This document shows positions 9,322 to 25,388 of a DNA stretch of 64,000 nucleotides, one piece after another. This stretch comes from Acidimicrobiia bacterium (GTDB lineage Bacteria > Actinomycetota > Acidimicrobiia > Spongiisociales > Spongiisociaceae), in NCBI GenBank assembly GCA_041576165.1, contig JBFGLM010000004.1, forward strand, positions 1 to 64,000, read 5' to 3'. Position 1 is the stretch's first letter; every line of letters starts with the position of its first letter. A model generated the notes under the pieces. That model was given only the letters and a program-made list of their open reading frames with translations. It was not told the origin of the DNA and did not search any database. The position numbers and the translations under genes are program-made.

Positions 9322-11127
9322 ATGGCAGGACCTGCAGCCCCCATCGAAAGCGCTCCGAGCGGATTCCGCGCGCGGGCTATTCGGCTTGGGCTGCAGTTCT
9401 CCGGCGGTGCGCTCCTGCTGGTGACGGTCGACGCGGTACTGGCCGGCATCGAAGCGACCCCCGACCTCATCGGCACCGTCTCCCTGGCCGCCGTCAGTCT
9501 GGCCGCGCTGGCGATCGTCGAGTGGGAGGCCGTCGCGCAGCGCCGGATCGGTTCCGTGCTGCTGTGGTTGTGGAGCTCGCTGATCCTGTTCCTGCTGGCC
9601 CGGGCGCTGACGTTCGAAGAGCTGATCGTCCCGATTGTCGGCCTATCGATGGTTGCCATCGTCGTTGTGGCCGTCATCGGCCAGACCTTCGGCCTGGTCC
9701 TCTTCGCTTCGTTGGTCGCTGCGGCCAACATCGCCATCCCGTGGATGACGCACGACGACCCATCTTCAGTGACCCTGATGATCACGATCGCCGCGTTCGC
9801 GGCCGTCGCCATCATCGCCCGGCTGCTGACCGCTGCCTACCGCCGCGAAGTAGTGCAAGCACGAGCCAGCCTGGCCGCGCTGGCCCGCCAGGAAGCGAAT
9901 TTCGAGCGCCTCTACGAGGTGTCCCGAACCATCGCCGCCGGCGACAGCCTGGCCAACGTGGTTCCTCAGCTGGTCGGGCGCATCGGCACCTACCTCGCTG
10001 CTGAGGTCGGTGTGGTGATGCTGCGGGACGACACCGGCCTCTCGCTCGAGGTGCTGTCGCCAATCTGGGCGGCCGGCCACACTCTCGACCTGGCCGGGTA
10101 TCGGGTTCCGATCCAGGCCGACGACCTTCTCGCCGAGACGTACCGTCTCGGCGAGGCGCGTATCTTCCGCAAGCTCGACCGCGCCGCCTTCGACTCGGGC
10201 CTGCTTGGCGAGCTCGGACTTACTTCAGCGATGGTCGCACCGCTCCGAGTGGGCGGGCGCTCGATGGGCCTGATCATCGTCGGCGACAAACGGGGCGGCC
10301 TGTTCGAGAGCACCGACCTAGAGGATTTGATCTCCTTGAGCGCACCGGCGGCGCTTGTCCTCGCCCAGCTCGACCGCTACCAGGAGGCGGCGGAAACCAG
10401 CCGCCGCATGGAGGAGCTTGCCCGGATGAAGACCGACTTCGTGTCGGTGGTCAGCCATGAGCTGCGGACCCCGCTGACGTCGATCATCGGGGCCCTCGCC
10501 ACGCTGGCCCGACCCGAACTGGCCCCTGAGCGGCCGGCGGCCCAGGAATTGCTCGGCTCGGCCCGGAACCAGGCCGATCGCCTGCGCCGGCTGATCGAGG
10601 ACCTGCTGATGGTCTCACGCATCGAGAACCGGGCGCTGCCACAGCAGCCCGAAAAGATCAAAGTCGAGGTGCTGCTGCGCGACGTCATGGCGACCATCCC
10701 CGACGCGGAATCGCGGGTGAGCCTCCGGGTCGACGAGGACGCATCCGAGATCGAGGCGGACGCCGATCACTTCCAGCGCATCGTCATCAACCTGATCGAA
10801 AACGCATTGAAATATGCGCCGAACTCACCAGTCGAGGTCGTCGCCACGGCCGTGCCCAATCAGACGATCTCCATTTCGTTCATCGACCACGGACCCGGTA
10901 TTGCCCTCGAGGCCCGGGACCGCGTCTTCGAACGATTTCAGCAGTTGGAGCCGTCCGCCACCCGGTCTCAGGGCGGCACCGGCTTGGGGCTGAACATCGT
11001 CAAAGGCCTCGTGACGGGCATGGGAGGCCGCATCGAGCTGTCCGAGACCGAGGGAGGGGGCGCGACCTTCACCGTCTTCTTGCCCAAGGCACCGGGATCG
11101 CTGTCGCAGCGGATCACCATTCTGTGA
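9322..11127 (+). CDS. Membrane sensor histidine kinase with GAF domain
   Basis: N-terminal TM helices, GAF-like segment, H-box SHELRTPLT, N-box NLIENALKY, DHGPG, GGTGLGL. Confidence 0.93.
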   Translation: MAGPAAPIESAPSGFRARAIRLGLQFSGGALLLVTVDAVLAGIEATPDLIGTVSLAAVSLAALAIVEWEAVAQRRIGSVLLWLWSSLILFLLARALTFEELIVPIVGLSMVAIVVVAVIGQTFGLVLFASLVAAANIAIPWMTHDDPSSVTLMITIAAFAAVAIIARLLTAAYRREVVQARASLAALARQEANFERLYEVSRTIAAGDSLANVVPQLVGRIGTYLAAEVGVVMLRDDTGLSLEVLSPIWAAGHTLDLAGYRVPIQADDLLAETYRLGEARIFRKLDRAAFDSGLLGELGLTSAMVAPLRVGGRSMGLIIVGDKRGGLFESTDLEDLISLSAPAALVLAQLDRYQEAAETSRRMEELARMKTDFVSVVSHELRTPLTSIIGALATLARPELAPERPAAQELLGSARNQADRLRRLIEDLLMVSRIENRALPQQPEKIKVEVLLRDVMATIPDAESRVSLRVDEDASEIEADADHFQRIVINLIENALKYAPNSPVEVVATAVPNQTISISFIDHGPGIALEARDRVFERFQQLEPSATRSQGGTGLGLNIVKGLVTGMGGRIELSETEGGGATFTVFLPKAPGSLSQRITIL

Positions 11128-11171
11128 CAGCCGGGCTGATACAGCCGGTGCCGGCCCGGCATCCCGGCTCC

Positions 11172-11963
11172 TCAGCTGGGGGGCGCCACGGCGGCTGCCG
11201 CCGCGTGAAAGCCGCCATCGACGTGTATCACCTCGCCGGTGGTCTTTGTCGCCCAGTCCGACAACAGCACGCACACCATTCGGGCCACCGGCTCGGGGTC
11301 CGTCACATCCCAGCGGAGCGGCGCGCGTTCGTCCCAGACGTCCTGGAAAACACTGAAGCCCGGAATCGATTTGGCAGCGACCGTGGCGAGTGGCCCGGCC
11401 GACACGGCGTTGACCCGGATGTCGTCCGGCCCGAGATAGGCCGCGAGGTAGCGCGTGACCGAGGCCAGCGCCGCTTTGGCGACACCCATCCAGTCATAAC
11501 CGGGCCAAGCCTGAACGCCGTTGTCGAAGTCGAGCGAGACCAGCGACCCTCCGCCGGCCGCCCGGAGCAGAGGCAGCAGACCGGCGGCCAGCGCCTTCAG
11601 CGAATACGCCGAGGTCGTGAACGCCATTTGGGCGGACTCGGGAGGCGTGGTGAGAAATGAGCCGCCCAACGCATCTTCCGGCGCGAACGCAATGGCATGT
11701 AGCGCTCCGTCGATTCCCCCCCAGCGCCGATCGAGCTCGCCGACCAGCGACTCCATGTGCGCGGCATCGTTGATATCCAGTTCCACCACATCGGGTGTGT
11801 CGGGCAGTCGCTGGGCGGCCCGCTCGGTCAACCGGATGCCGCGCCCGAACCCTGTGAGAACGAGCTGGGCCCCTTGCTCCTGCGCGAGCTTCGCGCTGTG
11901 CCAGGCGATCGAGCCGTCGGTGAGAACCCCGGTTATGAGCAGGCGTTTGCCTTCGAGCAACAT
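11172..11963 (-). CDS. fabI: Enoyl-ACP reductase (FabI/InhA type)
   Basis: GKRLLITGVLTDGSIA, HAIAFAP, YDWMGVAKAAL, IHVDGG. Confidence 0.93.
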   Translation of the reverse strand: MLLEGKRLLITGVLTDGSIAWHSAKLAQEQGAQLVLTGFGRGIRLTERAAQRLPDTPDVVELDINDAAHMESLVGELDRRWGGIDGALHAIAFAPEDALGGSFLTTPPESAQMAFTTSAYSLKALAAGLLPLLRAAGGGSLVSLDFDNGVQAWPGYDWMGVAKAALASVTRYLAAYLGPDDIRVNAVSAGPLATVAAKSIPGFSVFQDVWDERAPLRWDVTDPEPVARMVCVLLSDWATKTTGEVIHVDGGFHAAAAAVAPPS

Positions 11964-12065
11964 GGCGTTCCCTCCGTCTGCGAGCAGCGGACTGTAGCGA
12001 GCCGGGCGCATTCCATGCCGGGGCCGAGGGGGATTGACGGCGCCTGGATCGGCCACGCCGGGCAT

Positions 12066-12428
12066 TCAGAAGCTTGCCCCGAAATTGGCAACCCCTCGTA
12101 GCCCGAGACCCATCACGAACAGGAGAATCAACCCCCACCACAACCTGGGTCGCCGGCGGATCTGGGCGCGGTAGATGTAGACGAATGTGAACGTGAAGAG
12201 GATCACAAAGCCATAGAACATGTGGATGCTTCCGGGTTCCTCGCCCTGTCCGAACATGATGAGGCCGATCCCGATCTGGCCGAGCATGGCGACCACAGAG
12301 CCGGCCACTACCCCTTTGAAGAATCCATCGATCGGACGCTTGACGATCTCGTATCCCAGTGCCACCAAGCCGCTCGCGCCGGCGACGACAATCGCGACCC
12401 AGGCGAAGGTGGCGTGAAATGCGGCCAA
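12066..12428 (-). CDS. Small four-TM membrane protein
   Basis: Four hydrophobic segments with an HMFYG motif; operonic position. Confidence 0.8.
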   Translation of the reverse strand: MAAFHATFAWVAIVVAGASGLVALGYEIVKRPIDGFFKGVVAGSVVAMLGQIGIGLIMFGQGEEPGSIHMFYGFVILFTFTFVYIYRAQIRRRPRLWWGLILLFVMGLGLRGVANFGASF

Positions 12429-12429
12429 C

Positions 12430-12996
12430 TCAACCGGCCTCCAGCTGCGCCATCTCGGCTCGGGCCGACGTGACCATGGCTTCGACGATCGGCTCGGATG
12501 CTGGGCCTTCCCGCAGGTCAGCCGTCAACTCAATCTGCACCCCGCGTCCCGGCGGCAGGTTGACCGGATTGCGGGGATGTACGCCCCGCAGCGTGCGTGG
12601 CATCTCTTCCAGGTCGTCGATGACGCGGGTGGAGGGGTGTTTGCGCATGACGGTTGCCATCCGGGCTGCCATTTCGCGGTTGCGCCCACCCAGCAACACT
12701 GTCTTCTGCATGCCCGGCCGCCCGAAACCATGCAACGACACGGCACAGGTGACGTGGTGTATGAACCGGCGAAGCCCGTGCGAATCAGCCGGATCGAAGT
12801 TGGTCGACGGTACGTGCCACCACAGATCCTCCGGCTGCTCGACCACGTAGAGAGACGCTCCCGCGCGTTGCGCGGCCCGCCGGGCCAGCTCGGCAGTGCC
12901 GGTTTCGATGCCCCCATGCAACGCCATGAAGCCCACTATCCCGGACAGCGACACATCCTCGACCACGCCGTCGTGCGCGAGGAGGTCAGCCAGCAT
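12430..12996 (-). CDS. Poly-gamma-glutamate hydrolase family (PghP/YjqB-like)
   Basis: ALHGGIETGT, HVPST, SLHG, GVHPRNPVN, GVQIEL motifs. Confidence 0.8.
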   Translation of the reverse strand: MLADLLAHDGVVEDVSLSGIVGFMALHGGIETGTAELARRAAQRAGASLYVVEQPEDLWWHVPSTNFDPADSHGLRRFIHHVTCAVSLHGFGRPGMQKTVLLGGRNREMAARMATVMRKHPSTRVIDDLEEMPRTLRGVHPRNPVNLPPGRGVQIELTADLREGPASEPIVEAMVTSARAEMAQLEAG

Positions 12997-13063
12997 TGCA
13001 ACGAGGGTAGCCGGATCGGGGTAGTTGCCTCTGGCCGGACGGGGAACGGGTGAGTCTCGCCGC

Positions 13064-13348
13064 CTACGGCACTTCGATCAGCTGGCCGGTGCGCAGGTCC
13101 AAGACAAACTCGCGGTCGGTGGTGGAATCCGCGATCCACTGAGCCAGCGCCGAGCCCGGTTGGCGCACGATCCACCACGCGTAACGAGCAGAGCCCGAGC
13201 CGTTGCGAAACACGTCGCGCGCCTTGCGAGCGTGCTCGATCGCGTCGACCTCGGTCTCAAACGTGCCGATCACTGTCTCTCGCGGTGGGGGGGCTGGGCG
13301 GCCCGGTTGAAACGTCAGCTCTATGAATTCAACTGCCTCAAATGACAT
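13064..13348 (-). CDS. Hypothetical protein, 94 aa
   Basis: Plausible composition and orientation; no recognisable domain. Confidence 0.7.
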   Translation of the reverse strand: MSFEAVEFIELTFQPGRPAPPPRETVIGTFETEVDAIEHARKARDVFRNGSGSARYAWWIVRQPGSALAQWIADSTTDREFVLDLRTGQLIEVP

Positions 13349-13563
13349 GGCTCAGTTCGCTTCCGCGGTTCCCCCTTGCACACCGGCACGATGGCACCAA
13401 CTGGCTGCGATACCATCGCATTCCGCGCCGGCGTACCGCGGGACTCCCCGGCCGTGCCCCACATGCTGGCCCCAATGTACACGCTGACACTTGCAAAGGA
13501 AGCGAATCATTCGCGCCATGAGCGTCCGGGCTCCCACCTTCAGTGGGGTATGACCCTCGGAAA

Positions 13564-14034
13564 TCATCCAGGTTTTGTCACATCGGCCACAATGGCATCG
13601 AAACATTCCACGAGGTCGGAGGGTGCGAGGTGGATCGCCACCCCGTGCTTGCCTCCCCCCAACGACACTTCGTCGTGCTCGAGCACCGCGGCATCGACGA
13701 TGAGCGCCCAGCCTCCGGTGGCGCCGAAGGGGGTGACGGTCCCGCGGACGTAACCCGTGACTGCAGCGAGCGCGTCCTCGTCGGCCATCGACACCCGGCT
13801 GACGCCCAGCTGCCGCCGCACCTTCGGCCAGTCGATCACCCGGTCGCCGCCGATTGCCACCAACCTGTAGTCGTCGCCGGACAGCCGGAGCACCAGCGTC
13901 TTGACCAGCGCCGCCAGTGGAACCCTGCGCGCCCGGGCGGCCTCTTCGGCAGTGTCGACCTTGCCGTAGGTGACGACTCGATGCTCGATGCCGGCTCGAG
14001 CCACCGCCTTCGTCGCCGGCGTGTCGGGGACCAT
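13564..14034 (-). CDS. YbaK/EbsC aminoacyl-tRNA editing family protein
   Basis: VKTLVL, TGYVRGTVTPFG, GGGKHG. Confidence 0.9.
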   Translation of the reverse strand: MVPDTPATKAVARAGIEHRVVTYGKVDTAEEAARARRVPLAALVKTLVLRLSGDDYRLVAIGGDRVIDWPKVRRQLGVSRVSMADEDALAAVTGYVRGTVTPFGATGGWALIVDAAVLEHDEVSLGGGKHGVAIHLAPSDLVECFDAIVADVTKPG

Positions 14035-15644
14035 CAAGTGGTGAAGACGTCCGAGTACTGGTCGCGAACCACCTTCTTGTCGAACTTGCCCGTCCCGGTT
14101 TTGGGGAGCTCGTCCACAAAGACGTACTCGTCAGGGAGCCACCATCTCGCAACCCGATCCGACAGGAATTGATTCAGCTCCTCTCCCGAGACCTCCGCAT
14201 TGGGTACGGGCACTACCAGCGCCAGCGGGCGCTCCTGCCATTCGGGATGTTTGATGCCGACCACCGCCGCTTCTGCCACGTTGGGGTGCGCCATGATCGT
14301 GTTTTCGAGATCGATCGACGAGATCCATTCACCACCAGATTTGATGACGTCCTTGGCGCGGTCAGTGATTCGGACGTAGCCCTCGGGAGTGATCTTGCAA
14401 ACGTCACCGGTACGGAGCCAGCCGTCGACCATGGTCTCTGAGCTGCGCGCATCTTTGTAGTACTCGGCGGCAATCCACGGGCCCTGGATCAACAACTCCC
14501 CGAAGGCTTCGCCGTCGTGAGGTAGCTCGTTCCCTTCCTCGTCGACGATCTTCACCCGCAACCCCGGAATCGGAAGGCCGGCCGTTTCCAGAAAGTCGAG
14601 TTGGCGATCCCAATCCCAATCCTCCATGTCCGGCTTGAGGAGGGCAACGGCGGCAACCGGGTTGGTCTCCGTCATACCCCATCCCTGGACGACCTTGATG
14701 CTGCGGTTCTTCCAATACCAGTCGATCATGGCCCGGGGAACCGCCGATCCACCGCAGAGGAATGAGTGGATGCTGGAGATGTCCCGATCGGGGTGGTCGG
14801 TCAGGAACTGCTGGATCCCGAGCCAAACCGTGGGAACTCCTGCCGAGAACGTCACCCGCTCGCTCTCGATCAGATCGACCAGACCGGCGGGCGAGAGGTC
14901 GGGCCCAGGATACGTGATCTTGGCCCCGGCGGTGGTGGCCTGGAATGGATATCCCCACGCAGCGGCGTGGAACATGGGAACCACCGGCATGAGATTGTCG
15001 GCGGATGAGATCGGCTTGAAGGCCATGCCCGATATGGTGTGCAGGTAGGTCGAACGTTGCGTGTAGGCGACGCCCTTGGGATTGCCGGTAGTGCCCGACG
15101 TGTAACAGAACATCATCGGTGAGCGCTCGTCCAGCTCGGGCCATTCGCCGTGCGGTGCAGCGTCAGCGATCAGGTCCTCGTAGGCGATGGCATTGGGCAA
15201 TGTCGTGTCCGTCGAGTCACCCATCACGATGAACTGCTTGACCGTGTCCAACTCGGCCGCGATCGGTTCGAGAGCGGAGACCAGATTCGGATCCACGAAC
15301 ACGACCTCGTCCTCGGCGTGGTTGATGATGTAGGTCAGCTGATCCGGGAAAAGGCGGATGTTGAGCGTGTGGCAGATGCGACCCGTGTTCGCAGTCGCCC
15401 AATACAGTTCGTGATGCCGCTGGTTGTTCCAGGCGAAGGTGCCCACCGCATCGCCCCGCTCCACTCCGAGGCCGGCGAGTGCGGTTGCGAGGCGGCGGAC
15501 CCGACTGTCCGTTTCGCCGTACGACGTCACCTGCCTTGACAGGTCGGGTTCCACCGACACGATCTGCTGATCCGGATGAATGCGGACGGCGCGCTCGTAC
15601 AGCGTCGACAGCAACAGCGGATAATCCATCATATGCGGGGGCAC
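14034..15644 (-). CDS. Fatty-acid/acyl-CoA ligase (AMP-binding)
   Basis: [44 protein letters not shown]; GTG start after AGGAGG. Confidence 0.93.
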
Positions 15645-15673
15645 CCGTACCTCCTCTGCCTGATCGCCATGAC

Positions 15674-16276
15674 CTAGATCTCGTCGAGGAGTTTGCGCTT
15701 CTTCGCCTCGAACTCTTGGTCGGTGAGCACGCCATCCCGCCACAGGCGAGCCAGCTTCTCGATCTCATCGGCCTTCGACAACGGTGCTCCGCCTTCGATG
15801 GCGAGCAACCGCGATTCGCGATACTGGTAGATGAGCGCCTGTGTCTCCTCCGGACTGGGGATGTCGGCATACCGGCTCTGGCCGCCCTCACCCGCCGACT
15901 CGATGATCAGATCGCCGGACCGCAGTATCCGTTCACCGACGGTCTGCGAATAGGAGACGTTGTCGATGCGCTCCAGCGGGATCTCTTTGCCCCGGCGGGC
16001 GATCACGCCCTCCCGGATGATCAGGCGCTCGTTGGTGATGATGTACTTCGTGAACAACCACGAGACCCACTGCCGGGCGCCAACGAACAGCCCGGCGAGG
16101 AGGGCCAAGCCGGCTCCGATGAGCCGAACGGTGCCCTCGAGTGTCGTGAGCAGGACCACCGCCACGACAAGTCCCACGATGAAGGCGACGATCGGGATGA
16201 TCAGCACCTTCCAATGCGGACGAAACTCGGTCTCGACCCGTTCACCGGGGCTGAGCAGTCGTTCCGGATACGCCAT
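15674..16276 (-). CDS. Membrane-anchored bacterial PH-domain protein with C-terminal SHOCT domain
   Basis: Two TMs, YIITNERLIIREG...RILRSGDLIIESAG, LARLWRDGVLTDQEFEAKKRKLL. Confidence 0.9.
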   Translation of the reverse strand: MAYPERLLSPGERVETEFRPHWKVLIIPIVAFIVGLVVAVVLLTTLEGTVRLIGAGLALLAGLFVGARQWVSWLFTKYIITNERLIIREGVIARRGKEIPLERIDNVSYSQTVGERILRSGDLIIESAGEGGQSRYADIPSPEETQALIYQYRESRLLAIEGGAPLSKADEIEKLARLWRDGVLTDQEFEAKKRKLLDEI

Positions 16277-16368
16277 GGGCGGATGATAGGCCAGGCGGCA
16301 TTCGCCGGCGCCGGCCACAGGGCGCCGTTCTTGGCTCAAAAACCATGGGCCACCGGCCATCGTTGAAA

Positions 16369-16442
16369 CGCGAAAACAATCATTGGCTCGCGAAAACGAA
16401 CCAACGCTGTCGTTTGCCCGGGTAAAGACGCGGTCGTAACGT
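16369..16442 (+). promoter_or_regulatory. Promoter of putative ncRNA-1 with upstream tandem CGCGAAAAC motifs
   Basis: CGCGAAAAC at 16369 and 16389; -35 TTGCCC 16414-16419, 17-bp spacer, -10 TAACGT 16437-16442. Confidence 0.7.
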
Positions 16443-16449
16443 GCCGCTC

Positions 16450-16855
16450 GCCGCATAGAGGAGACTCTCAGCGGTGCCTCGGAAACGAGGCAGGCAACCG
16501 GACGGAGACGAACGGTTGCCGAACCCGGACGGTGCTTCGGCACGGGACGGGAGCTCGGAGGTCGCGGATTCGTCCGTGAGCAATGAGTACGGCAGGCAGT
16601 GGGCCTCGCTCACCAGCCGCCGTCTCGGCGCCGGCTGCGGCTGGCGTGGAGAATTGCTCGGACCGGGTTTCGGCCCGGAGCGAGCGAACCGGTGTCGCCG
16701 GCGCTTCGGCGACGGTGGCAGCGGACAGAAGCGGTTGAGAAGGCGCTTCGCACGTCTCGGACGGAGACCGGCCTTCGGGTCGGGTCGCCGAAAGGGACAC
16801 TGAAACCCCGAGAGGGTGCTGACTTCGGTTCGTACTCGCTCGGGGTTTCGCTATG
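16450..16855 (+). ncRNA. Putative structured ncRNA-1 (~405 nt, hairpin chain, GGA-rich)
   Basis: About 11 consecutive stem-loops, 7 TTCG loop-position tetramers plus GAGA/GAAA loops, promoter upstream, terminal hairpin 16802-16849; no credible ORF. Confidence 0.75.
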
Positions 16856-16858
16856 TGC
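16802..16858 (+). terminator. 3'-terminal hairpin/terminator of ncRNA-1
   Basis: GAAACCCCGAG...TTCG...CTCGGGGTTTC followed by GCTATGT. Confidence 0.6.
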
Positions 16859-16939
16859 GTTGCGGTGCAGCTGTAGCCATAGCCACAGCCGCGTCTGGCC
16901 ACAGCTGGGGAGCAATAGAGCGGGGAACGGAACAGCCCC

Positions 16940-17103
16940 AAACGCGGAAAATCCCGAGGGAGTTCTGGCCGAAACCATCACCCTCTCGGGACTTCCACAC
17001 CCTGCAGGTGCTCCAGTGCCCGAAGGTACTGTTCCCCCTGCGGGGCTTCCAGGCCGACCTCTCGGTCTGCCCTTCCCTGCCCCGGGTCACCCCGGTGCAG
17101 TAC
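16940..17103 (-). ncRNA. Putative structured ncRNA-2 (~165 nt, hairpin chain with GGA linkers)
   Basis: Minus strand CCGGG-GTGA-CCCGG, GACC-GAGA-GGTC, CCCC-GCAG-GGGG, CAGTACC-TTCG-GGCACTG, CACCT-GCAG-GGTG, terminal hairpin 16996-16946. Confidence 0.72.
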
Positions 17104-17108
17104 GTGGC

Positions 17109-17183
17109 AATGTAGAACGCTGGCGCCTGCGTGACAACCCCAAACCGCACCTTTGTTTTCGCGTCCTAGCAAAAGATTTCGCG
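17109..17183 (-). promoter_or_regulatory. Promoter of putative ncRNA-2 with upstream tandem CGCGAAA(T/A)C motifs
   Basis: Minus strand CGCGAAATC (17183-17175), CGCGAAAAC (17163-17155), -35 TTGTCA (17137-17132), 17-bp spacer, -10 TACATT (17114-17109). Confidence 0.72.
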
Positions 17184-17214
17184 ATACCGGCGGGGCCGCC
17201 GCAATCGCTGCGAA

Positions 17215-17236
17215 TGTCACAGCCTCCCCGTATAGT
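17215..17236 (+). promoter_or_regulatory. PafBC/RecA-NDp-like DNA-damage promoter
   Basis: TGTCAC-N10-TATAGT, 7 nt before the ATG. Confidence 0.6.
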
Positions 17237-17243
17237 TACACGC

Positions 17244-18047
17244 ATGTCATTGGACACGTTGTCGCCGAGCCGGGCATCGGATTTCAAGCTCTGCCCGCAG
17301 CTGTTCAAGTTCCGGGCCATCGACCGGCTGCCGGAGCCGACCACTGTCTATCAGGCTCGCGGCACGACGGCACACCTGGCGCTCGAGTGGCTGTTCGATC
17401 TGCCTCCCGATCAGCGCCGGCCCGAAGTCCTATACGACCTCTTCCGCAAGGCGTGGACGCAGCTGCGGGGCGACGAGCAGTTCGCCGAGCTGTTTGCGTC
17501 GACTGATGATGAGCGGGAGTGGGGTGTGGAGAGCATGCAAGTACTCGCCAACTACTTCGCGCTGGAAAACCCGGCCGGTGTCGTGCCGGTGGACCGGGAG
17601 CTCGACATGATGGAGGAGGTCGGACAGCTGACGATCCGGGGAATTCTCGACCGCATCGACGAAAACGGGGACGGGGAGCTGGTCATAACCGACTACAAGA
17701 CCGGCAAGGCCCCACCGGAGCGTTATGCGCTCGGTGCCTTCTTCGCCTTGAAGATATATGCGTTGCTCATCCGCAACCGAATGGGCCGTACCCCCCGCCA
17801 GCTGCGCCTCCTGTACCTCGGGAATTCGGTGATGTATCAGATCCGGGTGGACGACGCCCAACTCGATGCCATGGAGCGGCAGCTGTCAGCCTTGTGGTCC
17901 GCCATCAACCGTGCCATCGAGGAACAGCGCTTTCCCCCCCGCCCCTCCCGGCTGTGCAACTGGTGCTCGTTTCAGTCTCGCTGCCCGGCCTTCACCGCCG
18001 AGGCCCCCGGCGGCCCCGAGCAGCTGCGGCTCGCCGCTACCGGTTAG
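17244..18047 (+). CDS. RecB-family PD-(D/E)XK nuclease
   Basis: LSPSRASDFKLCP, RGILDRID...DYKTG, CNWCSFQSRCP (four Cys); real start 17244, not 16599. Confidence 0.92.
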   Translation: MSLDTLSPSRASDFKLCPQLFKFRAIDRLPEPTTVYQARGTTAHLALEWLFDLPPDQRRPEVLYDLFRKAWTQLRGDEQFAELFASTDDEREWGVESMQVLANYFALENPAGVVPVDRELDMMEEVGQLTIRGILDRIDENGDGELVITDYKTGKAPPERYALGAFFALKIYALLIRNRMGRTPRQLRLLYLGNSVMYQIRVDDAQLDAMERQLSALWSAINRAIEEQRFPPRPSRLCNWCSFQSRCPAFTAEAPGGPEQLRLAATG

Positions 18048-18071
18048 CCAGCGCGGGGTTCGTCGATCGGC

Positions 18072-19205
18072 TCAGTGCTCCACGACGAGGAGCCCGGAGC
18101 GCACCTTGGGAGCGAACCACGTCGATTTCGGGGGAAGCCAGCGACCAGCATCCGCTACGGCCATGATGTCCTCGATGGTGGGCGGCTCCAGCAGGAACCC
18201 GATCGCAAGCCGGCTGGTCTCGCGCTCGAGCATCGTCACCGGATCGCTATCCACCCGGTAGTCGATTCGATGCTCGTCATACACTCCGAGACCCGTTTGG
18301 ATGATCTCCTGGTGCACGAGCGAGACGTCGAGGCGGTCAACCTGGTCCAGCGGGCGATCCCCCACGCGCTCGAGCCGATACCACCGGCCGCCCATGCACA
18401 ATCCGACGACACCCGGTGCAGCTCGAATGTCGCGGTCGGACGGAGAGACGCGCCAGGTAGGCCCGATCCGGTCGAAGAAGTCGACGGGAGCCTGCGCGTT
18501 CACCACCCGGTGATAACCGAACACCTGCATCTCGGCGGCCGGGAAGGCAACGATCAGAATGTCTATCTCGGGTTCGCCCGCCATCGCAGCCGCCATCCTG
18601 TGGTGGCCATCGCTGATATACAGACGATCCATCTCCTGGATTGGGACCGGAAGTTCTGCATCGGCCACACGCCACACCCGGTGGGCGATTCCATCATGAC
18701 CGATGTACTCAACGACCGGCGGGCCGGTCGCGGCCGCGGCGGTGGCTTCGCCGGCGGATGCGTCGGGCCGCCACATCACCGAGATCGGGCTGGGGTTGAT
18801 CCCGGTCTCCGCATAAAATCGGGCAAGCGCCGCTACTCGCCGGTCCAGCACCCGCTCGTGTCCCAGAATCCGTCCAGCATCGGACGGCCGGATCGAGGCG
18901 ACCACACCTCGCTGGCAGTGCCCGTGATCGGACATCTCGTAGACGTAGAAAGCGGGCGGCGCCGGCGGGGTGAAGTAGTTCTCGAGCAGCCGGGCGAGCT
19001 GGGCGCGGGAGCGGCGGCCGAGTTCATCTGGATCGAGGTCGGGATCCGGCATGTCCTCCGGAGACAGAATCACCGTGAGGAAGTTGTCCGGGTGGGCTTG
19101 GGCAAATGTGAACCGTTCTTCCGGCCGCAGCGCGTCATAGGGCGGCGCCACCACGGTCTGGACGGCTTCGGGTAGCGGGAGCCGTGCCGATATCGGATGA
19201 ATCAC
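18072..19205 (-). CDS. DUF1015 family protein
   Basis: APPYD, GHE, YISDGHHR, LPPKSTWFAPKVRSGL. Confidence 0.9.
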   Translation of the reverse strand: MIHPISARLPLPEAVQTVVAPPYDALRPEERFTFAQAHPDNFLTVILSPEDMPDPDLDPDELGRRSRAQLARLLENYFTPPAPPAFYVYEMSDHGHCQRGVVASIRPSDAGRILGHERVLDRRVAALARFYAETGINPSPISVMWRPDASAGEATAAAATGPPVVEYIGHDGIAHRVWRVADAELPVPIQEMDRLYISDGHHRMAAAMAGEPEIDILIVAFPAAEMQVFGYHRVVNAQAPVDFFDRIGPTWRVSPSDRDIRAAPGVVGLCMGGRWYRLERVGDRPLDQVDRLDVSLVHQEIIQTGLGVYDEHRIDYRVDSDPVTMLERETSRLAIGFLLEPPTIEDIMAVADAGRWLPPKSTWFAPKVRSGLLVVEH

Positions 19206-20410
19206 TCGTGTCCTCTGACACTCAGGTCAACAACCTGGGGCAGTGCGCGGATCGAGTTCTGGGTATCTGTGGAAGGCACCGCCGACAGCGACAGGCGGGC
19301 CACAGCTCCAATGCCGCCGGCAAAGATACGGTTTTCCATGTCCTGCACATTGATGCCGGCCCGGCGGACCTCAGCCAGGATCGCGGAAAGTACACCGACC
19401 ACGTTGTGATGGCGGACGACCATGCTGGCCCCGGCCGACGCCTCGAGCAGATTCACCGCATTGCGAGGCCGGCCCGCATGGTGCTTGCGGAGCACCTCCA
19501 GTACGGCCGCCGCGACCGCTTCCTGCGCCTGTTCGGTCGAAGCGCCAATGTGGTGGGTGCCGTAGACACCCGGGTGCTGGGCAAACTTCGAACTGAACTG
19601 CGCGGTGCCTGAGCCCGGCTCGTTGTGGAATACGTCGACGCCCACCCGTAGCCCTCGGTTGTCTATCGCCGCCACCAGATCTGACTCGTCGGCCACCAGC
19701 TCCCCGCGTGATGTGTTGAGCAGGATTGCCCCCGCACGCAGGTGCGACAGGAGCGAAGCGTTGATCATGCCCTTCGTCGCATCCGAGAGGGGAACGTGAA
19801 ACGACAGCACGTCGGATGCGGCTGCCAGCTCCTCCAAGGAATCCACCAGCCCCATTCGCAGACGGGTCAGCAGCTCACTTGCCCGTGGGGACCGGTTCGG
19901 CCGGTCGAGCGTGACGATGTGCATCCCGAAACCAGCCACCCGCTGCGCGACCTCCTGGCCGATCGAACCCAGCCCAACCAGGCCGAAGGTGCGGCCGTAA
20001 AGGCCCCTGGCCCGGCTGAAGCGGCGCTTTTCCCAGCGTCCCTCGCGGAGCGCTGCCACGTTGTCGGGCACGCTGCGATCGATAGCCAGCAACAAGGCCA
20101 GAGTCAGCTCGGCCACTGCGATGGCGTTCTGGCCGGGGGCGTTGGACACGGTGATCGCTGCGTTGGAGGCAGCCGCGACGTCGATCGTGTTGGTGCCCGC
20201 GCCCGCCCGTACGATCAGCGCCAGCCGGTCTGCCGCTGCAATGGTCTCGGCCGTCACCCGGGTGGAACGCACGACCAGCGCGTCGTATCCGCCTATCGCA
20301 CCCGGCAAGCTGTCTTGGGTCAGATCCGCAGCCTCTGTCGCCTCCCAACCCTCATCACGGAGCGCTTCCATGAAGGACGGTGTCAGCGCATCGGCCACCA
20401 GAACTCTCAT
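19202..20410 (-). CDS. serA: D-3-phosphoglycerate dehydrogenase-like D-2-hydroxyacid dehydrogenase with ACT domain
   Basis: RAGAGTNTID, GLVGLGSIG, NTSRGE, HIGASTEQAQ, C-terminal HHNVVGVL ACT; coupled to DUF1015. Confidence 0.75.
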   Translation of the reverse strand: MRVLVADALTPSFMEALRDEGWEATEAADLTQDSLPGAIGGYDALVVRSTRVTAETIAAADRLALIVRAGAGTNTIDVAAASNAAITVSNAPGQNAIAVAELTLALLLAIDRSVPDNVAALREGRWEKRRFSRARGLYGRTFGLVGLGSIGQEVAQRVAGFGMHIVTLDRPNRSPRASELLTRLRMGLVDSLEELAAASDVLSFHVPLSDATKGMINASLLSHLRAGAILLNTSRGELVADESDLVAAIDNRGLRVGVDVFHNEPGSGTAQFSSKFAQHPGVYGTHHIGASTEQAQEAVAAAVLEVLRKHHAGRPRNAVNLLEASAGASMVVRHHNVVGVLSAILAEVRRAGINVQDMENRIFAGGIGAVARLSLSAVPSTDTQNSIRALPQVVDLSVRGHE

Positions 20411-20455
20411 GGCAGGGACGATACCGGTTGCTCATGCTCCCAACGAGCCAGCCGG

Positions 20456-22126
20456 TCACGTCCGTGGGGTTGGACGACCGCGACAGTCCAGGCCTTCACC
20501 GGGCCGGTAGGTGGCGAACACAGAATCCGCCACCACCTGGCCGTCGGGATAGACGCGCTCACGGAAGGTCTCGACCCGAGTGCAGGCGCCGAGGGAGCTC
20601 ACGGCCTGGCCGGTCTGGGCGACTGCGGTGTGCGGCGTCGAATACATCTGAACCGTGATGGACGTGTCGGTGTACGAGGTCCAGATCAGGACGTGGTACG
20701 GCGTCGTGTTGTGGATGACGAGGTCGGGCACCGGGAACGAGACGGTGGCTTCTCGACCGTACGGATAGCGGCTGATGTAGATGCTGTGGCTCTGGTATTC
20801 GGGAATGTCCAGGCCGGCAAAGAAGGCCGCGTTGAACAACGTGGTGGCGAACTGCGAGATACCGCCGCCAACGGCGTCGTCGAACCGGCCCGATTGGATG
20901 ACGCCGGCCGATACGAAACCATTGTCCCTGGTGCGCCGGCCTACGTACTCGTTGACCGAGAACACCTCGTCGGGCGCAATCACATATCCCCGAATGATGT
21001 CGGCGATCCGGTGAATATTGGTGACCCGCGTCTGACAACAGGCGTGCTCGGTCGTGAACTCGCCGACCAGATCCGTCACGCCCAGCTTGCGAGCCACCAG
21101 CAAGCTCTCGTCGTTGCTGGGCGGACGCAACGGCGCCTCGATCGGCTGCGGTGTATCACCCAGCACCACCGCCTCGAGCATCGGGACGATGGTCGAAGCG
21201 CAGCAGACCGTACGCGTGTCACGCAGGTCGGCGAACACCGGCCGGTCGTCGACCACGTCGAAGGTGGGTTCCAAGTCGCCTACCCATACGTCGGCGAACA
21301 GCGATTCGACGTACTGGAGGGCCTCCGAACCATCGAACTCCAGCTCCAGGTGCCCGCGCTCGCTGGTCGTGCTCATCCACGAATAGAGCGGCTTGGGCGG
21401 CACCCAGCGGGCGGTGTCCCCGATGGTCACGATTATTCCGGCCGCGACCCGGTTCTTGATGCCGGCCACCAGTGACTCGGCCTCACCGAAGAGGATCGGA
21501 CTGGGTATTTCCAGCCATGCGCCCCGGAGATGGGAATAGTCGCCCGTCGCAACCCCATTGGCGATCGCACCTACGATCTGCTCCACGTCCAAACCGCGCC
21601 CCGGCGCTCCCTCGACGGCGACGAGAACCTCGCCGTTGAACGTGGCCGAAGGATCGACCGGCTGGCGGTCGATTGCCAGCGGGTGGCGGGCCAGCAGCGA
21701 TCTGGCCGCATCGGCGTCGAAGGTGTGGACCACGTCTACCCGGCGGCGGTCGTCGAGATTCACAGCCCACCCATGAAACTGTTCCCACAGCGAACCCGCC
21801 CGACCCGCATCGAGGATGGCCGCCCGGGTGGCGTCACTATCGATCCCAACACCCAGCTCCCCGGCCAGGAACTCGATCGTCTGGTCGCCAAGGTCGATCG
21901 TTACCGGGCTCGACTCCACCCGCTCCGCAGATGCAGCGAGCACCCCATTGAGGTCGGCCTCGCCCATGCCGCCCACGAGACGGTCTTCCAGCGAAACGTT
22001 GCGCAACGCCGCACCGTCGTGCAGGCGCGTGTCAACCAGCCACGCCCCGACTGCCAACCCGCCGGCTATGACCAGCAGCGCGGACGTGAGCAGCGGCTTG
22101 TTCCACCAGCGTCCTACTAGCCACAC
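20456..22126 (-). CDS. VanW family protein with putative peptidoglycan-binding domains
   Basis: N-terminal TM, VGGGISQFATTLFNAAF, HSIYISRYPYGREATV; start GTG 22126 or ATG 22138. Confidence 0.9.
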   Translation of the reverse strand: MWLVGRWWNKPLLTSALLVIAGGLAVGAWLVDTRLHDGAALRNVSLEDRLVGGMGEADLNGVLAASAERVESSPVTIDLGDQTIEFLAGELGVGIDSDATRAAILDAGRAGSLWEQFHGWAVNLDDRRRVDVVHTFDADAARSLLARHPLAIDRQPVDPSATFNGEVLVAVEGAPGRGLDVEQIVGAIANGVATGDYSHLRGAWLEIPSPILFGEAESLVAGIKNRVAAGIIVTIGDTARWVPPKPLYSWMSTTSERGHLELEFDGSEALQYVESLFADVWVGDLEPTFDVVDDRPVFADLRDTRTVCCASTIVPMLEAVVLGDTPQPIEAPLRPPSNDESLLVARKLGVTDLVGEFTTEHACCQTRVTNIHRIADIIRGYVIAPDEVFSVNEYVGRRTRDNGFVSAGVIQSGRFDDAVGGGISQFATTLFNAAFFAGLDIPEYQSHSIYISRYPYGREATVSFPVPDLVIHNTTPYHVLIWTSYTDTSITVQMYSTPHTAVAQTGQAVSSLGACTRVETFRERVYPDGQVVADSVFATYRPGEGLDCRGRPTPRT

Positions 22127-22166
22127 GGCGGAAAGCATACGAAGGATGAGCCGGTACCGCGCGGAA

Positions 22167-22188
22167 TGTCACACCCGATTCGTACTGT
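22167..22188 (+). promoter_or_regulatory. PafBC/RecA-NDp-like DNA-damage promoter
   Basis: TGTCAC-N10-TACTGT upstream of the small ORF and adnAB. Confidence 0.6.
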
Positions 22189-22219
22189 GAGTGCCAGAAG
22201 CTCACTACGGAGGATCGAC

Positions 22220-22393
22220 ATGCAGATCACAGCAACGGAGCCGGTCCCACTCCGAGTCGAAGCAGCCGGCCTGGGCATTTCAGATGCCGAGGAAGCGCTC
22301 GCCGCGGCCGGGATATCGTTCATGACCCAATTCAGCGCGCCGGCGGATCGGTGCGGATGGTGTGCGAGCCGGACCGTCCCGGCGGCCGCCTGA
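22220..22393 (+). CDS. Small hypothetical protein (57 aa, CGWC motif)
   Basis: GGAGG SD, ATG 22220, stop 13 nt before adnA. Confidence 0.65.
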   Translation: MQITATEPVPLRVEAAGLGISDAEEALAAAGISFMTQFSAPADRCGWCASRTVPAAA

Positions 22394-22406
22394 CGGCGGA
22401 GCGCCC

Positions 22407-25388
22407 ATGGCCTACGCTCCCGCCGTGGTCGACTCGCACATCGAACCGGGAGCGTGGGATGCCGCCATCGCTCGCGTCGACGGCCCGCAGCTGATAGTGG
22501 CCGGTCCCGGCACCGGCAAAACGGAGTTCCTCGTCCGGCGGGCGGCCCACCTCATCGATGACCTGGGAATCGCAGCAGACCGCGTGTTGCTCCTCACGTT
22601 CTCGCGCCGGGCCGCTGCGGACCTGCGCCGCCGGGTGGAGGATCGAATCGCACGCTCGACCACCGGAATTCCTGCTTCGACCTTCCATTCGTTTGCGCTC
22701 CGTCTCCTGGAACTGCACGCCCCGGCCGTCCTCGGCTGGTCATCGTTGCCCACCATCCTGACCGGACCGGAGCAAGTGGCGCTGGTAGCGGAGCTGCTGG
22801 CCCAGGAAACGGAGCAGTCATGGCCGGCCCCGTTTCGCGCGATGCTCACCACCCGTACGTTCGCCGCCGAGGTTGCCGACTTCGTGATGCGGAGCCAGGA
22901 ACGGCTGCTCAGCGCAGAGACCCTGGCCGCGCTCGCCGCACAGCGAGCCGACTGGCGGGCCCTTCCAGACTTCGTGCGGCGGTACCACGAGCGGCTGAAA
23001 CGCGACCACCGGATCGATTACGGTACCCTCCAGGCCCAGGCAGTACGGTTGCTCGGCGATCTGACGGTGCGGGCCCAGGTCGCAGAACAGTATCGCTTCG
23101 TGCTGGTCGACGAATACCAAGACACCACAGTCGCCCAGGCCGGCCTGCTGGACGGCCTCACCGCAGTGCGCCGGAACCTCACCGTCGCCGCCGACCCCTA
23201 TCAGTCCGTGTACTCGTTCCGAGGCGCCGAACTCGACAACGTCGCCGAGTTCCCTCACCAGTTCCGGGACCCGACCGGCGCTCCTGCCCGCCGCGTGGTC
23301 CTCAGCACATCGTTTCGGGTGCCCGCTGCGATCCTCGGAGCGGCTGAGCGGCTCACAGCCGGCGAGCTCCCCGGTGGTGCCGGGCCGGTGCAGCCGGCCG
23401 CGCACCAGGGCCGCGTGGACGTCCACCTGTTCGACCAGCTGTCCCATGAGGCGGACTGGATCGCGGAAGAGGTGCAGCGCCTCCACCTAGAGGAGGGCAT
23501 CGCGCTAGACGACATGGCGGTGCTGGTACGGACCAAGCGCCGGATATTGCCCGAGCTCTCCCGTGCGTTGGAACGGCGGTCTATCGCTCACGACAAACCG
23601 GAGTCGCGCCTGGTGGATCATCCGGCCATCCGGCCGGTCTTCGATTGCGTGGCGCTGGCCATGGACGACGGCCCGATGACCGACGCGTCGGCCACTCGAC
23701 TGCTGCTCGGTCCGCTCTTCCGGGCGTCGATCGGCACGCAACGTGACCTCGATCGAATGCGGGCCCGTACGGGTGCCTCGTGGCGAGAGCTGTTCGCAGA
23801 CCATGTCGCTGGGGGACGTCCCATGGCCCTCCTGTTGCAGGATCCCGCCTGGGCGGGTGAGTGGCCGGCCGCCGACGGCTTCTGGCACCTCTGGACCTCC
23901 CTTCCCCAGTTCCCGACCATCGTGGCTGATCCCGACCTGGCCGACCATCGAACGGCCTGGACATCCTTTTCCCAAGCACTGACCCGCCTGGCCGAGCGTG
24001 ATCCCAGAATGACGCTGGCGACATATGTGCAGCTGGCAGATGCCGACGACTTCGAAGCCACCCCCATGCTTTCGTACCGGCGTCCCAACGAAAAGCGGCT
24101 CACCCTGACCACGCTCCATCAGGCCAAAGGCCTCGAGTTCGAAGTCGTGTTCATCGCCGACGCCGTGGAGGGCGTGTTTCCCGACCTCCGGCGCCGGCGT
24201 TCGATCCTGCAGACGGAACGCTTGTCGAACCAAGCGCCGGAAGGCGCCCGGCGCCGGCAGCTCCGCGAGGAGATGCGCTTGGCCTACGCCGCGATGACCC
24301 GGGCGCGGCGCCGCGTGGTGTGGACGGCGACAGAGGCCGGTCTCGACGAGGGCGAAAACCGGCCGAGTCGTTTCTTGCTGGCGGTCGCCGGCACCGACGA
24401 TCCCAGTGCCACCCGGGCGCCTGACAGATCCGGCTCTCCGGTGACGATTGCGGAAGCAGAGGCGCTCTTGCGTTCAACCCTGGCCGATCCTGCCGCGGCC
24501 ATCCCGCTCCGCCTGGCGGCGGCGGCAGTGCTGGTCGCCCGCCCACATCCGGAGTTGCGCGACCCGCGCTCGTTTGCACTCACTCGCCGTCCCGGCCCGG
24601 CCACGGGCGTAGTGCAGTTGCCGCTCCGTATGTCGCCCAGCCAGGCCGTGGCGTACGAACAGTGTCCCCGCCGCTACGTCCTGGAGCGGCGTCTCCGGAT
24701 CGGGAGCGAACCAAGCGTCTACATGGCGTTTGGGTCCCTCATCCACGCCGTGCTCGAGGCGGTGGAGCGGGTTGCGGCGGGCCGCCAGGCCCGCTCTACC
24801 CTCGCGGAGGCGCTGGCGGCGCTGGACAAGCGATTTGCCGACTACGACTTCGGGCCCGGAGCGTGGCGCGACGCCTGGTACCGGCGGGCCCAGCGATGTT
24901 TGCGCAATCTGTATGAACACTGGCCCAGACCCGAGGACCGCGCCGTGCTGCTGGAACACCGCCTGAGGCTCCAGCTGGGCGGCGTGGACTGGCACGGTAT
25001 CGCCGATCGGATCGAGACGGCGAGCGGCCAAGACGGTCTCCGGATCGTGGACTACAAGACAGCCACGCAACCTCCCCCGGCGGCGGAAGCTGCGGTGTCG
25101 CTTCAGCTTGGGTTCTACTTGCTGGCCGCTCGAGCCGACGAGGTCGTCGCCGAGTTCGGCGAACCACGAGAAGCGGAGTTCTGGTACCCGATGAAGACCT
25201 CACGGCCGGACAAGCCGATCGTGCTCGACGCGGCCCGGATCGAGGAGGTGGAGTCCCGGCTGATCGCGACTGCGGACTCCCTGGCACAGGAGGACTGGAC
25301 ACCGCGGCCGAACGAGCGTTGCGACCGGTGCCGGGTCCGGATTCTGTGTCCCGAGTGGCCCGAGGGTCGCGAGGCGTTCGTCCGATGA
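22407..25388 (+). CDS. adnA: UvrD-like helicase/RecB-like nuclease, AdnA-like subunit
   Basis: AGPGTGKT, DEYQD, TLHQAKGLEF, C-terminal DRIE...DYKT; tandem with a paralog. Confidence 0.85.
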   Translation: MAYAPAVVDSHIEPGAWDAAIARVDGPQLIVAGPGTGKTEFLVRRAAHLIDDLGIAADRVLLLTFSRRAAADLRRRVEDRIARSTTGIPASTFHSFALRLLELHAPAVLGWSSLPTILTGPEQVALVAELLAQETEQSWPAPFRAMLTTRTFAAEVADFVMRSQERLLSAETLAALAAQRADWRALPDFVRRYHERLKRDHRIDYGTLQAQAVRLLGDLTVRAQVAEQYRFVLVDEYQDTTVAQAGLLDGLTAVRRNLTVAADPYQSVYSFRGAELDNVAEFPHQFRDPTGAPARRVVLSTSFRVPAAILGAAERLTAGELPGGAGPVQPAAHQGRVDVHLFDQLSHEADWIAEEVQRLHLEEGIALDDMAVLVRTKRRILPELSRALERRSIAHDKPESRLVDHPAIRPVFDCVALAMDDGPMTDASATRLLLGPLFRASIGTQRDLDRMRARTGASWRELFADHVAGGRPMALLLQDPAWAGEWPAADGFWHLWTSLPQFPTIVADPDLADHRTAWTSFSQALTRLAERDPRMTLATYVQLADADDFEATPMLSYRRPNEKRLTLTTLHQAKGLEFEVVFIADAVEGVFPDLRRRRSILQTERLSNQAPEGARRRQLREEMRLAYAAMTRARRRVVWTATEAGLDEGENRPSRFLLAVAGTDDPSATRAPDRSGSPVTIAEAEALLRSTLADPAAAIPLRLAAAAVLVARPHPELRDPRSFALTRRPGPATGVVQLPLRMSPSQAVAYEQCPRRYVLERRLRIGSEPSVYMAFGSLIHAVLEAVERVAAGRQARSTLAEALAALDKRFADYDFGPGAWRDAWYRRAQRCLRNLYEHWPRPEDRAVLLEHRLRLQLGGVDWHGIADRIETASGQDGLRIVDYKTATQPPPAAEAAVSLQLGFYLLAARADEVVAEFGEPREAEFWYPMKTSRPDKPIVLDAARIEEVESRLIATADSLAQEDWTPRPNERCDRCRVRILCPEWPEGREAFVR

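Follow-up and report, generated by a model that had tools for sequence, protein, structure and literature searches.

A previously undescribed family of structured small RNAs in one order of Acidimicrobiia, with an upstream double box that also precedes dnaA

Qrr1-5, LhrC1-5, PrrF1/2, and RsmX/Y/Z are sets of sibling small RNAs under a common activator-dependent promoter, and CcnA of Caulobacter is a cell-cycle-regulated small RNA that acts on the messages of master regulators. Among RNAs that bind proteins, 6S binds the RNA polymerase holoenzyme and Ms1 binds the core enzyme. Here we describe an intergenic RNA gene of an Acidimicrobiia bacterium that recalls several of these systems. Like the sibling families, it belongs to a set of paralogues, often in tandem, with a common upstream element and a terminator-type hairpin, and it mixes conserved modules with variable parts; unlike them, it has no sequence or model relationship to any of those sets and no Rfam hit, its host has no detected Hfq or ProQ, and its upstream element is also found at dnaA. 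The parallel with CcnA concerns what we propose below, namely a small RNA transcribed with replication or cell-cycle genes, in which a short G/C-rich box pairs with the leader of a master regulator. The two RNAs are not homologous, and whereas CcnA sets a C-rich loop against G-rich ribosome-binding regions, here a G-rich linker would face a C/U-rich box far 5' of the start codon. The sponges CsrB and RsmY share with the copy studied here several GGA motifs between hairpins, but in our RNA GGA is unenriched and lies outside loops, and CsrA is mostly absent from the order.

6S RNA is similar as a near-universal and probably abundant small RNA in its clade. Searches with the 6S model RF00013 gave no matches in this genome at E values up to 1 and none in 81 genomes of the order, while the same control search found 6S in 5 of 14 well-known genomes. 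Identity with 6S was rejected on this ground and on structure, as the consensus consists of four independent hairpin domains with neither a 5'-3' closing rod nor a central bubble. Ms1 is comparable as an actinobacterial intergenic structured RNA from a setting where 6S was not detected. According to the portion of the Ms1 report available to us (PMC9130861), that RNA is ~300 nt long, with a central bubble and short end hairpins, and its hallmark neighbor is a gene for a HAD-IB hydrolase ("phosphoserine phosphatase"). The RNA described here has 165 nt and four hairpins in a row, and Pfam searches of the 11 neighboring genes (9322-25388) found no HAD domain; measured against the length, bubble, and neighbor given in that portion of the report, identity with Ms1 was also rejected. 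The Ms1 synteny table includes the word "PH", and a PH-domain gene borders our locus; the string "Acidimicrobi" is absent from the main text of that paper (PMC9130861).

The window, by which we mean the whole stretch of 64,000 nucleotides that was analyzed, carries the RNA gene in a 967-bp intergenic region between a bPH_2/SHOCT membrane-protein gene and a PD-(D/E)XK nuclease gene. Its features are as follows.

16932-17105, minus strand: the RNA as a whole, conserved and noncoding, ~165 nt, with four helical domains, P1-P4
17156..17183, minus strand: upstream double box, CGCGAAAT (17183-17176) and CGCGAAAA (17163-17156), the two starts separated by 20 nt and the end 18 nt short of the -35 element
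17109..17137, minus strand: core promoter, TTGTCA (17137-17132), a 17-nt spacer, and TACATT (17114-17109); homologues have TTGACG-17/18-TACCTT (n = 12)
~17101-17103, minus strand: predicted transcript start, placed by promoter spacing alone
17077..17100, minus strand: P1 hairpin with GUGA loop, from the fold; 8/8 consensus pairs of helices 1-2 change on both sides
17070..17077, minus strand: G-rich box GGGAAGGG (family consensus GGGGAAGG) between P1 and P2, its GGAA unpaired in the fold; proposed seed
17051..17072, minus strand: P2 hairpin with GAGA loop (helices 3-4, 5/5 pairs covary), followed by an unpaired GGAA at 17050-17047
16999..17046, minus strand: P3 domain with apical UUCG loop, a lineage-specific variant, from the minimum-energy fold
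16944..16998, minus strand: P4, the long 3' hairpin, CCCGAGAGGG ... UUCG ... CCCUCGGG, with GGAAG pairing with UUUUCC at its base; the signature module of the family
16935..16943, minus strand: 3' tail GCGUUUGGG, the approximate RNA end, beyond which the conservation of alignment A1 fades
16448..16863, plus strand: RNA-B, a sibling of ~415 nt with ~13 hairpins in a string and a family-type 3' hairpin; matched by the covariance model R1 (below) at 16732-16863 with 39.3 bits
16369-16396, plus strand: double CGCGAAAA box of RNA-B, with promoter TTTGCC/TAACGT
17244..18047, plus strand: PD-(D/E)XK nuclease gene, divergent from the RNA (Pfam PDDEXK_1, E = 4.4e-35), true start ~17244
15674..16276, minus strand: gene for a membrane protein with bPH_2 and SHOCT domains, the other border of the intergenic region (Pfam and homologue comparison)

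The longest open reading frame (ORF) for the nuclease runs from 16599 to 18047 and covers the RNA. A first-pass annotation had judged the part over the RNA to be a spurious N-terminal extension, rightly so: nuclease homologues and the PDDEXK_1 domain start at about 17244-17262, homology begins at or after ~17244 in all 80 homologous loci, and the real start is placed at ~17244 rather than 16599. The double box is situated between the two divergent starts of the RNA and the nuclease gene. Among close homologous loci, 40 of 44 have a family RNA within 3 kb of the nuclease gene, and three of the four exceptions have no upstream DNA; none of 36 loci of distant nuclease homologues has one. The genome assembly (G000), built from a metagenome, comprises 5.1 Mb with 7.5% contamination, relatives having 2-4 Mb, and the short-subtype RNA of the window is closer to RNAs of another family (f4) than to those of its own; both observations call for caution regarding the origin of contigs such as C138, discussed below.

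The same annotation had described a noncoding minus-strand RNA of ~165 nt, built of five short hairpins, each followed by a GGA motif, and a long terminal stem. The minus-strand sequence at 16940-17103 is as it was described. The GUGA, GAGA, and UUCG hairpins and the long terminal stem are present in the minimum-energy fold, and the two "GCAG" hairpins are found neither there nor in the family consensus; their arms are instead joined to one another at the base of a single domain, P3. Four domains, P1-P4, make up the family structure, in place of the five hairpins and a stem that had been claimed. The minus strand folds at -88.2 kcal/mol (z = -4.75), a stability that 0 of 200 shuffles matched; the plus strand folds equally well (z = -5.87), so single-sequence folding cannot give the strand.

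Periodic hairpin-GGA units did not hold up as the organizing principle. GGA occurs 6 times, against 6.58 ± 1.69 expected, a count reached by 733 of 1,000 dinucleotide shuffles; the longer GGA[AG][GC] occurs 5 times against 2.86 expected (131/1,000 shuffles), and GGAA, a motif chosen post hoc, 4 times against 1.17 (11/1,000 shuffles). In the minimum-energy fold, four of the six GGA motifs are unpaired and none is in a hairpin loop, their places being linkers and stems, and the last GGAAG is itself paired, forming the 5' side of the terminal stem. What survives of the regularity is two GGA positions that are conserved in homologues, one in the GGGGAAGG box after P1 and the other after P2. The signal above chance comes from conservation and covariation, not from the GGA count.

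BLAST searches of 40 relatives recovered the 3' hairpin alone, in 7 genomes, and in none of the 24 belonging to the same family, making a covariance model necessary. In one relative, the same gene pair flanks ~1,450 bp that hold three tandem units, each with the hairpin. Among 80 loci fetched by the nuclease protein, 12 homologues align across the whole RNA and its promoter with 59-65% identity, and RNAalifold predicted 48 pairs in four domains, with compensatory changes at 14. Covariance model R1 was built from 13 sequences (these 12 and the window RNA) on the automatic consensus structure and was used to align 28 sequences, 26 of them distinct, from which the pair statistics were taken. Paired cells made up 96.9%, against 88.0 ± 0.4% in shuffles, and 32 of the 48 pairs changed on both sides, against 12.4 in shuffles, with 0 of 500 shuffles equaling the observed count; these statistics lean to the favorable side because the sequences share ancestry and their alignment was guided by the model structure. 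Homologue covariation had been named in advance as a check on the RNA, and its result is positive. When partners were slid, pairing fell to 38-63%.

P4 is conserved in sequence, and not in pairing alone, across 12 families: 8 of the 18 pairs in its helix 6 are the same throughout, and one G·U pair is kept in all 26 sequences. P1-P3 covary freely. The strand can be read from 196 G·U cells, with 96.9% pairing in the sense direction versus 81.5% in antisense, which fixes the minus strand; the oriented promoter concurs. This promoter, TTGTCA-17-TACATT at 17137-17109 on the minus strand, had been called correctly and is the sole promoter-like site in 16400-17400 (0.2 in shuffles); its -35 and -10 elements are conserved in homologues. 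A coding region was considered, as ORFs cross the locus on both strands, and rejected, since gaps of 1, 2, 8, and 12 columns in the alignment disrupt any reading frame and the substitutions are compensatory. The frame-breaking gaps, the conserved -35/-10, the covariation, and the G·U asymmetry together uphold the ~165-nt noncoding minus-strand RNA that was claimed. The locus is almost certainly a conserved structured small RNA gene that belongs to a previously undescribed multi-copy family. As in trans-acting small RNAs, the gene is intergenic, has its own conserved promoter, and ends in a 3' hairpin.

A scan with Rfam 15, likewise named in advance as a check, gave no matches at gathering scores in the 64-kb window, and an E-value scan of 16400-17400 had as its best result a plant microRNA model (E = 0.23; 21.7 bits against a threshold of 268). 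With R1, 99 matches came from 88 sources. The two copies of this genome share the one intergenic region and are the window RNA at 104 bits and the plus-strand match at 16732-16863 (39.3 bits). Within the same order, 133 of 151 genomes have matches, with 1-7 copies that are usually clustered and often in tandem; the count among high-quality genomes is 97 of 110. When genomes were sampled across the class, a match was present in 38 of 39 from this order and in 0 of 111 from the other orders. The family is limited to one order of Acidimicrobiia and is near-universal there. These order and class tallies take in two or three genomes flagged as unpublished, on which no separate claim is built. Copies away from the nuclease gene also occur; G084, G124, and G141, among others, have them on other contigs. 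Small RNAs of Acidimicrobiia appear unstudied; a full-text search, with most subscription journals outside its reach, found no paper on them.

The 3' hairpin is the sole part common to all subtypes and reads roughly CCCCGAGAGGG ... GGCUUCGGCC ... CUCGGGG. The 5' parts form classes, with predicted lengths from promoter to 3' hairpin of ~165, 370-390, 470, and 560 nt. The window RNA is of the ~165-nt class, here called type 1, with a variant P3: its upper P3 replaces the GCCCGC-loop hairpin typical of most homologues, all 7 of the 48 consensus pairs that it lacks are in upper P3, and the nearest variant is that at locus L024. The G-rich box between P1 and P2 is invariant or nearly so in alignment A1 and is present in 14 of the 15 top-scoring homologues, all ~163 nt long; the window copy reads GGGAAGG, not GGGGAAGG.

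Two genomes of the same family as the window genome (G002 and G008, the latter on contig C1, e.g., 940149-941989, 949490-951154, and 2284840-2286670) have up to 18 double boxes in tandem arrays with ~400-700 bp spacing, where R1 barely detects the RNAs. In the RNAs of loci L126, L128, and L138, GGGGAAC comes after a P1-like hairpin. R1 probably understates both the size and the diversity of the family.

The sibling RNA-B is convergent with the window RNA, the two ends being ~70 nt apart without overlap. Its fold has z = -7.84, and we observed 11 CGGA motifs in it against 4.9 expected (4/1,000 shuffles), this motif being chosen post hoc. The sole RNA run found, metatranscriptome X1, held 8% of sampled words; its one contig, of 268 nt and carrying no strand information, is 100% identical to 16482-16746, inside RNA-B, so that the window RNA and its flanking genes fall outside its coverage.

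Two CGCGAAA boxes, with starts 20-21 nt apart, precede 62 of the 79 best family matches and are followed by 17-18 nt, TTGAC(G)/TTGC, a further 17-18 nt, and TACnTT. The boxes are at about -57 and -78, on the same helix face. Across the order, 145 of 151 genomes have the double box, usually 1-5 times, and the backward-read control gave 5 hits in total. The 5.1-Mb genome has three, one before the window RNA, one before RNA-B, and one on contig C138 upstream of an nrdJ fragment. Conserved sequences are found downstream of the double box at four loci elsewhere, L139 and L142 (G034, G045) and L130 and L132 (G013, G009); one such pair has a noncoding stretch conserved between the two genomes, the other a conserved 226-aa ORF, and neither has an Rfam match. 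An Rfam search of contig C138 and 20 other double-box loci gave nothing usable.

Double boxes at a distance from the RNA genes pointed to dnaA and to nrdJ, the gene for a B12-dependent ribonucleotide reductase. With up to one mismatch allowed, 23 of 28 genomes have the double box in the same orientation upstream of dnaA, and the gene-body and reversed controls gave 0 hits; one of the misses had just 134 nt of upstream DNA. For nrdJ, 6 of 28 genomes have the double box upstream, five of these belonging to one family, and further cases are G145 and, in this genome, contig C138. The distance from the double box to the -35 element of the core promoter is ~100-150 nt at dnaA, versus 17-18 nt at the RNA genes, so the action of the box at dnaA may differ. 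The RNAs are probably co-regulated with dnaA. We also observed that the dnaA upstream regions (contig C7 of this genome at ~3100-3400, minus strand, and loci L145-L174) share the double box in the form CGCGA(A/G)A, and that the dnaA core promoter in the order is CTCTTGA-N17-ATACTCGC, with an inverted TTTC(T)CGC word before it. A P4-like hairpin seen by eye in the dnaA leaders of one family was discarded, as R1 finds none in 30 dnaA loci; its two hits there are weak, downstream of the gene, and on the other strand.

The dnaA leaders of the order have an ACUUCCC box, followed by DnaA boxes within the leader. CUUCCC, usually within ACUUCCC(C), occurs a few tens of nucleotides downstream of the dnaA core promoter, at a similar place in 22 of 23 leaders, and the same box is at the 5' end of 5 of 8 predicted transcripts from upstream of nrdJ, with three consecutive copies on C138. 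The ACUUCCC box is complementary to the unpaired GGGGAAG that is the best-conserved single-stranded segment of the short subtype (GGGGAAGG, between P1 and P2). In this genome, hand comparison set GCAGGGAAGGGCAG of the RNA opposite CUGCACUUCCCAGA of the dnaA leader with 4 + 6 bp and one mismatch. Complementarity of 6-8 nt is weak evidence, given that G/A-rich and C/U-rich boxes are common in GC-rich genomes. Strict GGGAAG occurs in about 25 of 62 family RNAs examined; the G-rich box is thus not universal and the dnaA box nearly is, so the dnaA box cannot exist solely for these RNAs. The dnaA leaders of G038 and G130 lack the box, and G130 does have a short-subtype RNA; in G057 the RNA box reads GGGGACGG, with weaker pairing to its own dnaA leader by hand comparison. 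Duplex energies of the RNA with the dnaA and C138 leaders were equaled by 172/300 and 296/300 shuffles, respectively, a measure that is unsuitable here as it pairs whole GC-rich molecules.

At C138:540-800 on the minus strand (locus L100), the transcript after the third double box would begin with three CUUCCCC repeats. This start is ~200 nt upstream of a second promoter, bearing a palindrome that we take to represent NrdR boxes, and of the nrdJ fragment at the contig end. The region was tried as a conserved partner RNA and rejected, BLAST against 120 other genomes giving 7 borderline hits (E = 0.0016-0.0094); a sub-threshold Rfam hit on C138 was to whalefall-1 (25.8 bits against 37). The full nrdJ copy, at C44:30853-33882 on the minus strand, consists of two matching pieces ~1.4 kb apart in one open frame of 2,071 aa, as compared with frames of ~1,150 aa in relatives, and its sequence suggests an intein or another large insertion.

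The best explanation overall, in which our confidence is evenly divided, is an independently transcribed family RNA that pairs in trans and is tied to replication control. It builds on the gene, its strand and structure, the order-wide distribution, and the double box held in common with the dnaA upstream region, all of which are observed. Each RNA gene would be transcribed from its own promoter, two CGCGAAA boxes followed by TTGACG-17/18-TACCTT, and the RNA would end in the near-invariant P4. One DNA-binding factor may drive both the RNAs and dnaA, and in some lineages a second nrdJ promoter as well. P4, likely a terminator, might double as a platform for a common protein partner, with the variable 5' part carrying the specificity. 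Neither Hfq nor ProQ was found in this genome, so any such partner of P4 would be new. In the short subtype, the unpaired GGGGAAG(G) would pair in trans with ACUUCCC(C) of the dnaA leader and of the nrdJ upstream transcripts, and this pairing could tune replication initiation and dNTP supply. We regard the pairing mechanism, suggested by complementarity between the boxes, as tentative.

The main rival is a decoy that sequesters a protein in the manner of 6S, Ms1, or CsrB. P4, and perhaps the multi-hairpin body, would titrate a conserved protein (RNA polymerase, a nuclease, or a regulator whose targets include the dnaA message), with copy number setting the dose. The sequence conservation of P4 fits such a role, with the 8 invariant pairs of helix 6 across 12 families next to freely covarying P1-P3; so do a 3' hairpin that alone is common to all subtypes, the 1-7 copies in tandem arrays, and a sibling such as RNA-B with its string of ~13 hairpins. 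The lack of canonical 6S in this genome and in the 81 genomes of the order that were searched may also leave the niche open. The consensus fold, however, has neither a 5'-3' closing stem nor a central bubble, and 165 nt is short next to the ~300 nt given for Ms1 in the portion of its report available to us (PMC9130861). A candidate partner protein is still only hypothetical, and the conserved 3' hairpin would suit the chaperone platform of a pairing RNA equally well; we consider a decoy somewhat unlikely. The specific form of a CsrA/RsmA sponge, in which GGA linkers bind CsrA dimers as in CsrB or RsmY, would draw on the four unpaired GGA motifs of the window fold and on a CsrA encoded in this genome (89 bits), but of the 151 genomes of the order, 12 have CsrA and 133 have the RNA. 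GGA is moreover unenriched and sited in linkers and stems instead of hairpin loops, just two GGA positions are kept in homologues, and no Rfam CsrB/Rsm model matched. Largely refuted by the distribution of CsrA, the sponge is a highly improbable reading. The csrA gene here, on contig C82 (locus L101:164-3153), is within a flagellar cluster of flgL, fliW, and csrA, then a fliA-like sigma factor gene, an arrangement that presumably reflects a FliW partner switch and that also speaks against a sponge.

It is also conceivable that the RNA product is irrelevant, and that convergent or divergent transcription acts in cis on the neighbors by interference or promoter competition. The place beside the nuclease gene, kept in 40 of 44 close loci, would be accounted for, as would a double box between two divergent starts and two RNAs that converge. 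Compensatory changes in 32 of the 48 pairs nevertheless show selection on the RNA fold, the ends of the two RNAs are ~70 nt apart with no overlap, and copies are found away from the nuclease gene (G084, G124, and G141), which together make a purely cis-acting element very unlikely. A structured repeat acting at the level of DNA, such as a REP- or MITE-like palindrome or a recombination site with no RNA role, would agree with multi-copy imperfect palindromes in tandem arrays and with a plus strand that folds well too. Against it, the invariant G·U would be an A·C mismatch on the other strand, the UUCG tetraloop speaks for an RNA, as does the conserved, oriented promoter that precedes each copy, and this genome has just two copies, at one syntenic locus; such a repeat is scarcely to be expected.

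The independently transcribed, trans-pairing RNA that we prefer can be extended to a wider RNA layer of replication control. A factor recognizing paired CGCGAAA boxes would switch dnaA, the second nrdJ promoter, and an expandable array of RNAs, and these RNAs, each with a 5' seed and a P4 handle, would feed back on the leaders via GGGGAAG:CUUCCCC. We think this extension unlikely; if true, it would represent a new chaperone-dependent RNA system in bacteria without Hfq and ProQ.

The family is new and absent from Rfam, and its covariance model, covarying structure, and phylogenetic range are ready for RNA databases. R1 could annotate these RNAs in hundreds of metagenome-assembled genomes, where long spurious ORFs cover the loci. 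The invariant 3' hairpin points to a possible new RNA-binding partner in organisms where no Hfq or ProQ was found, and the common double CGCGAAA element, which links the RNAs with dnaA and in certain lineages with nrdJ, offers a testable entry point to replication control in bacteria not yet brought into culture.
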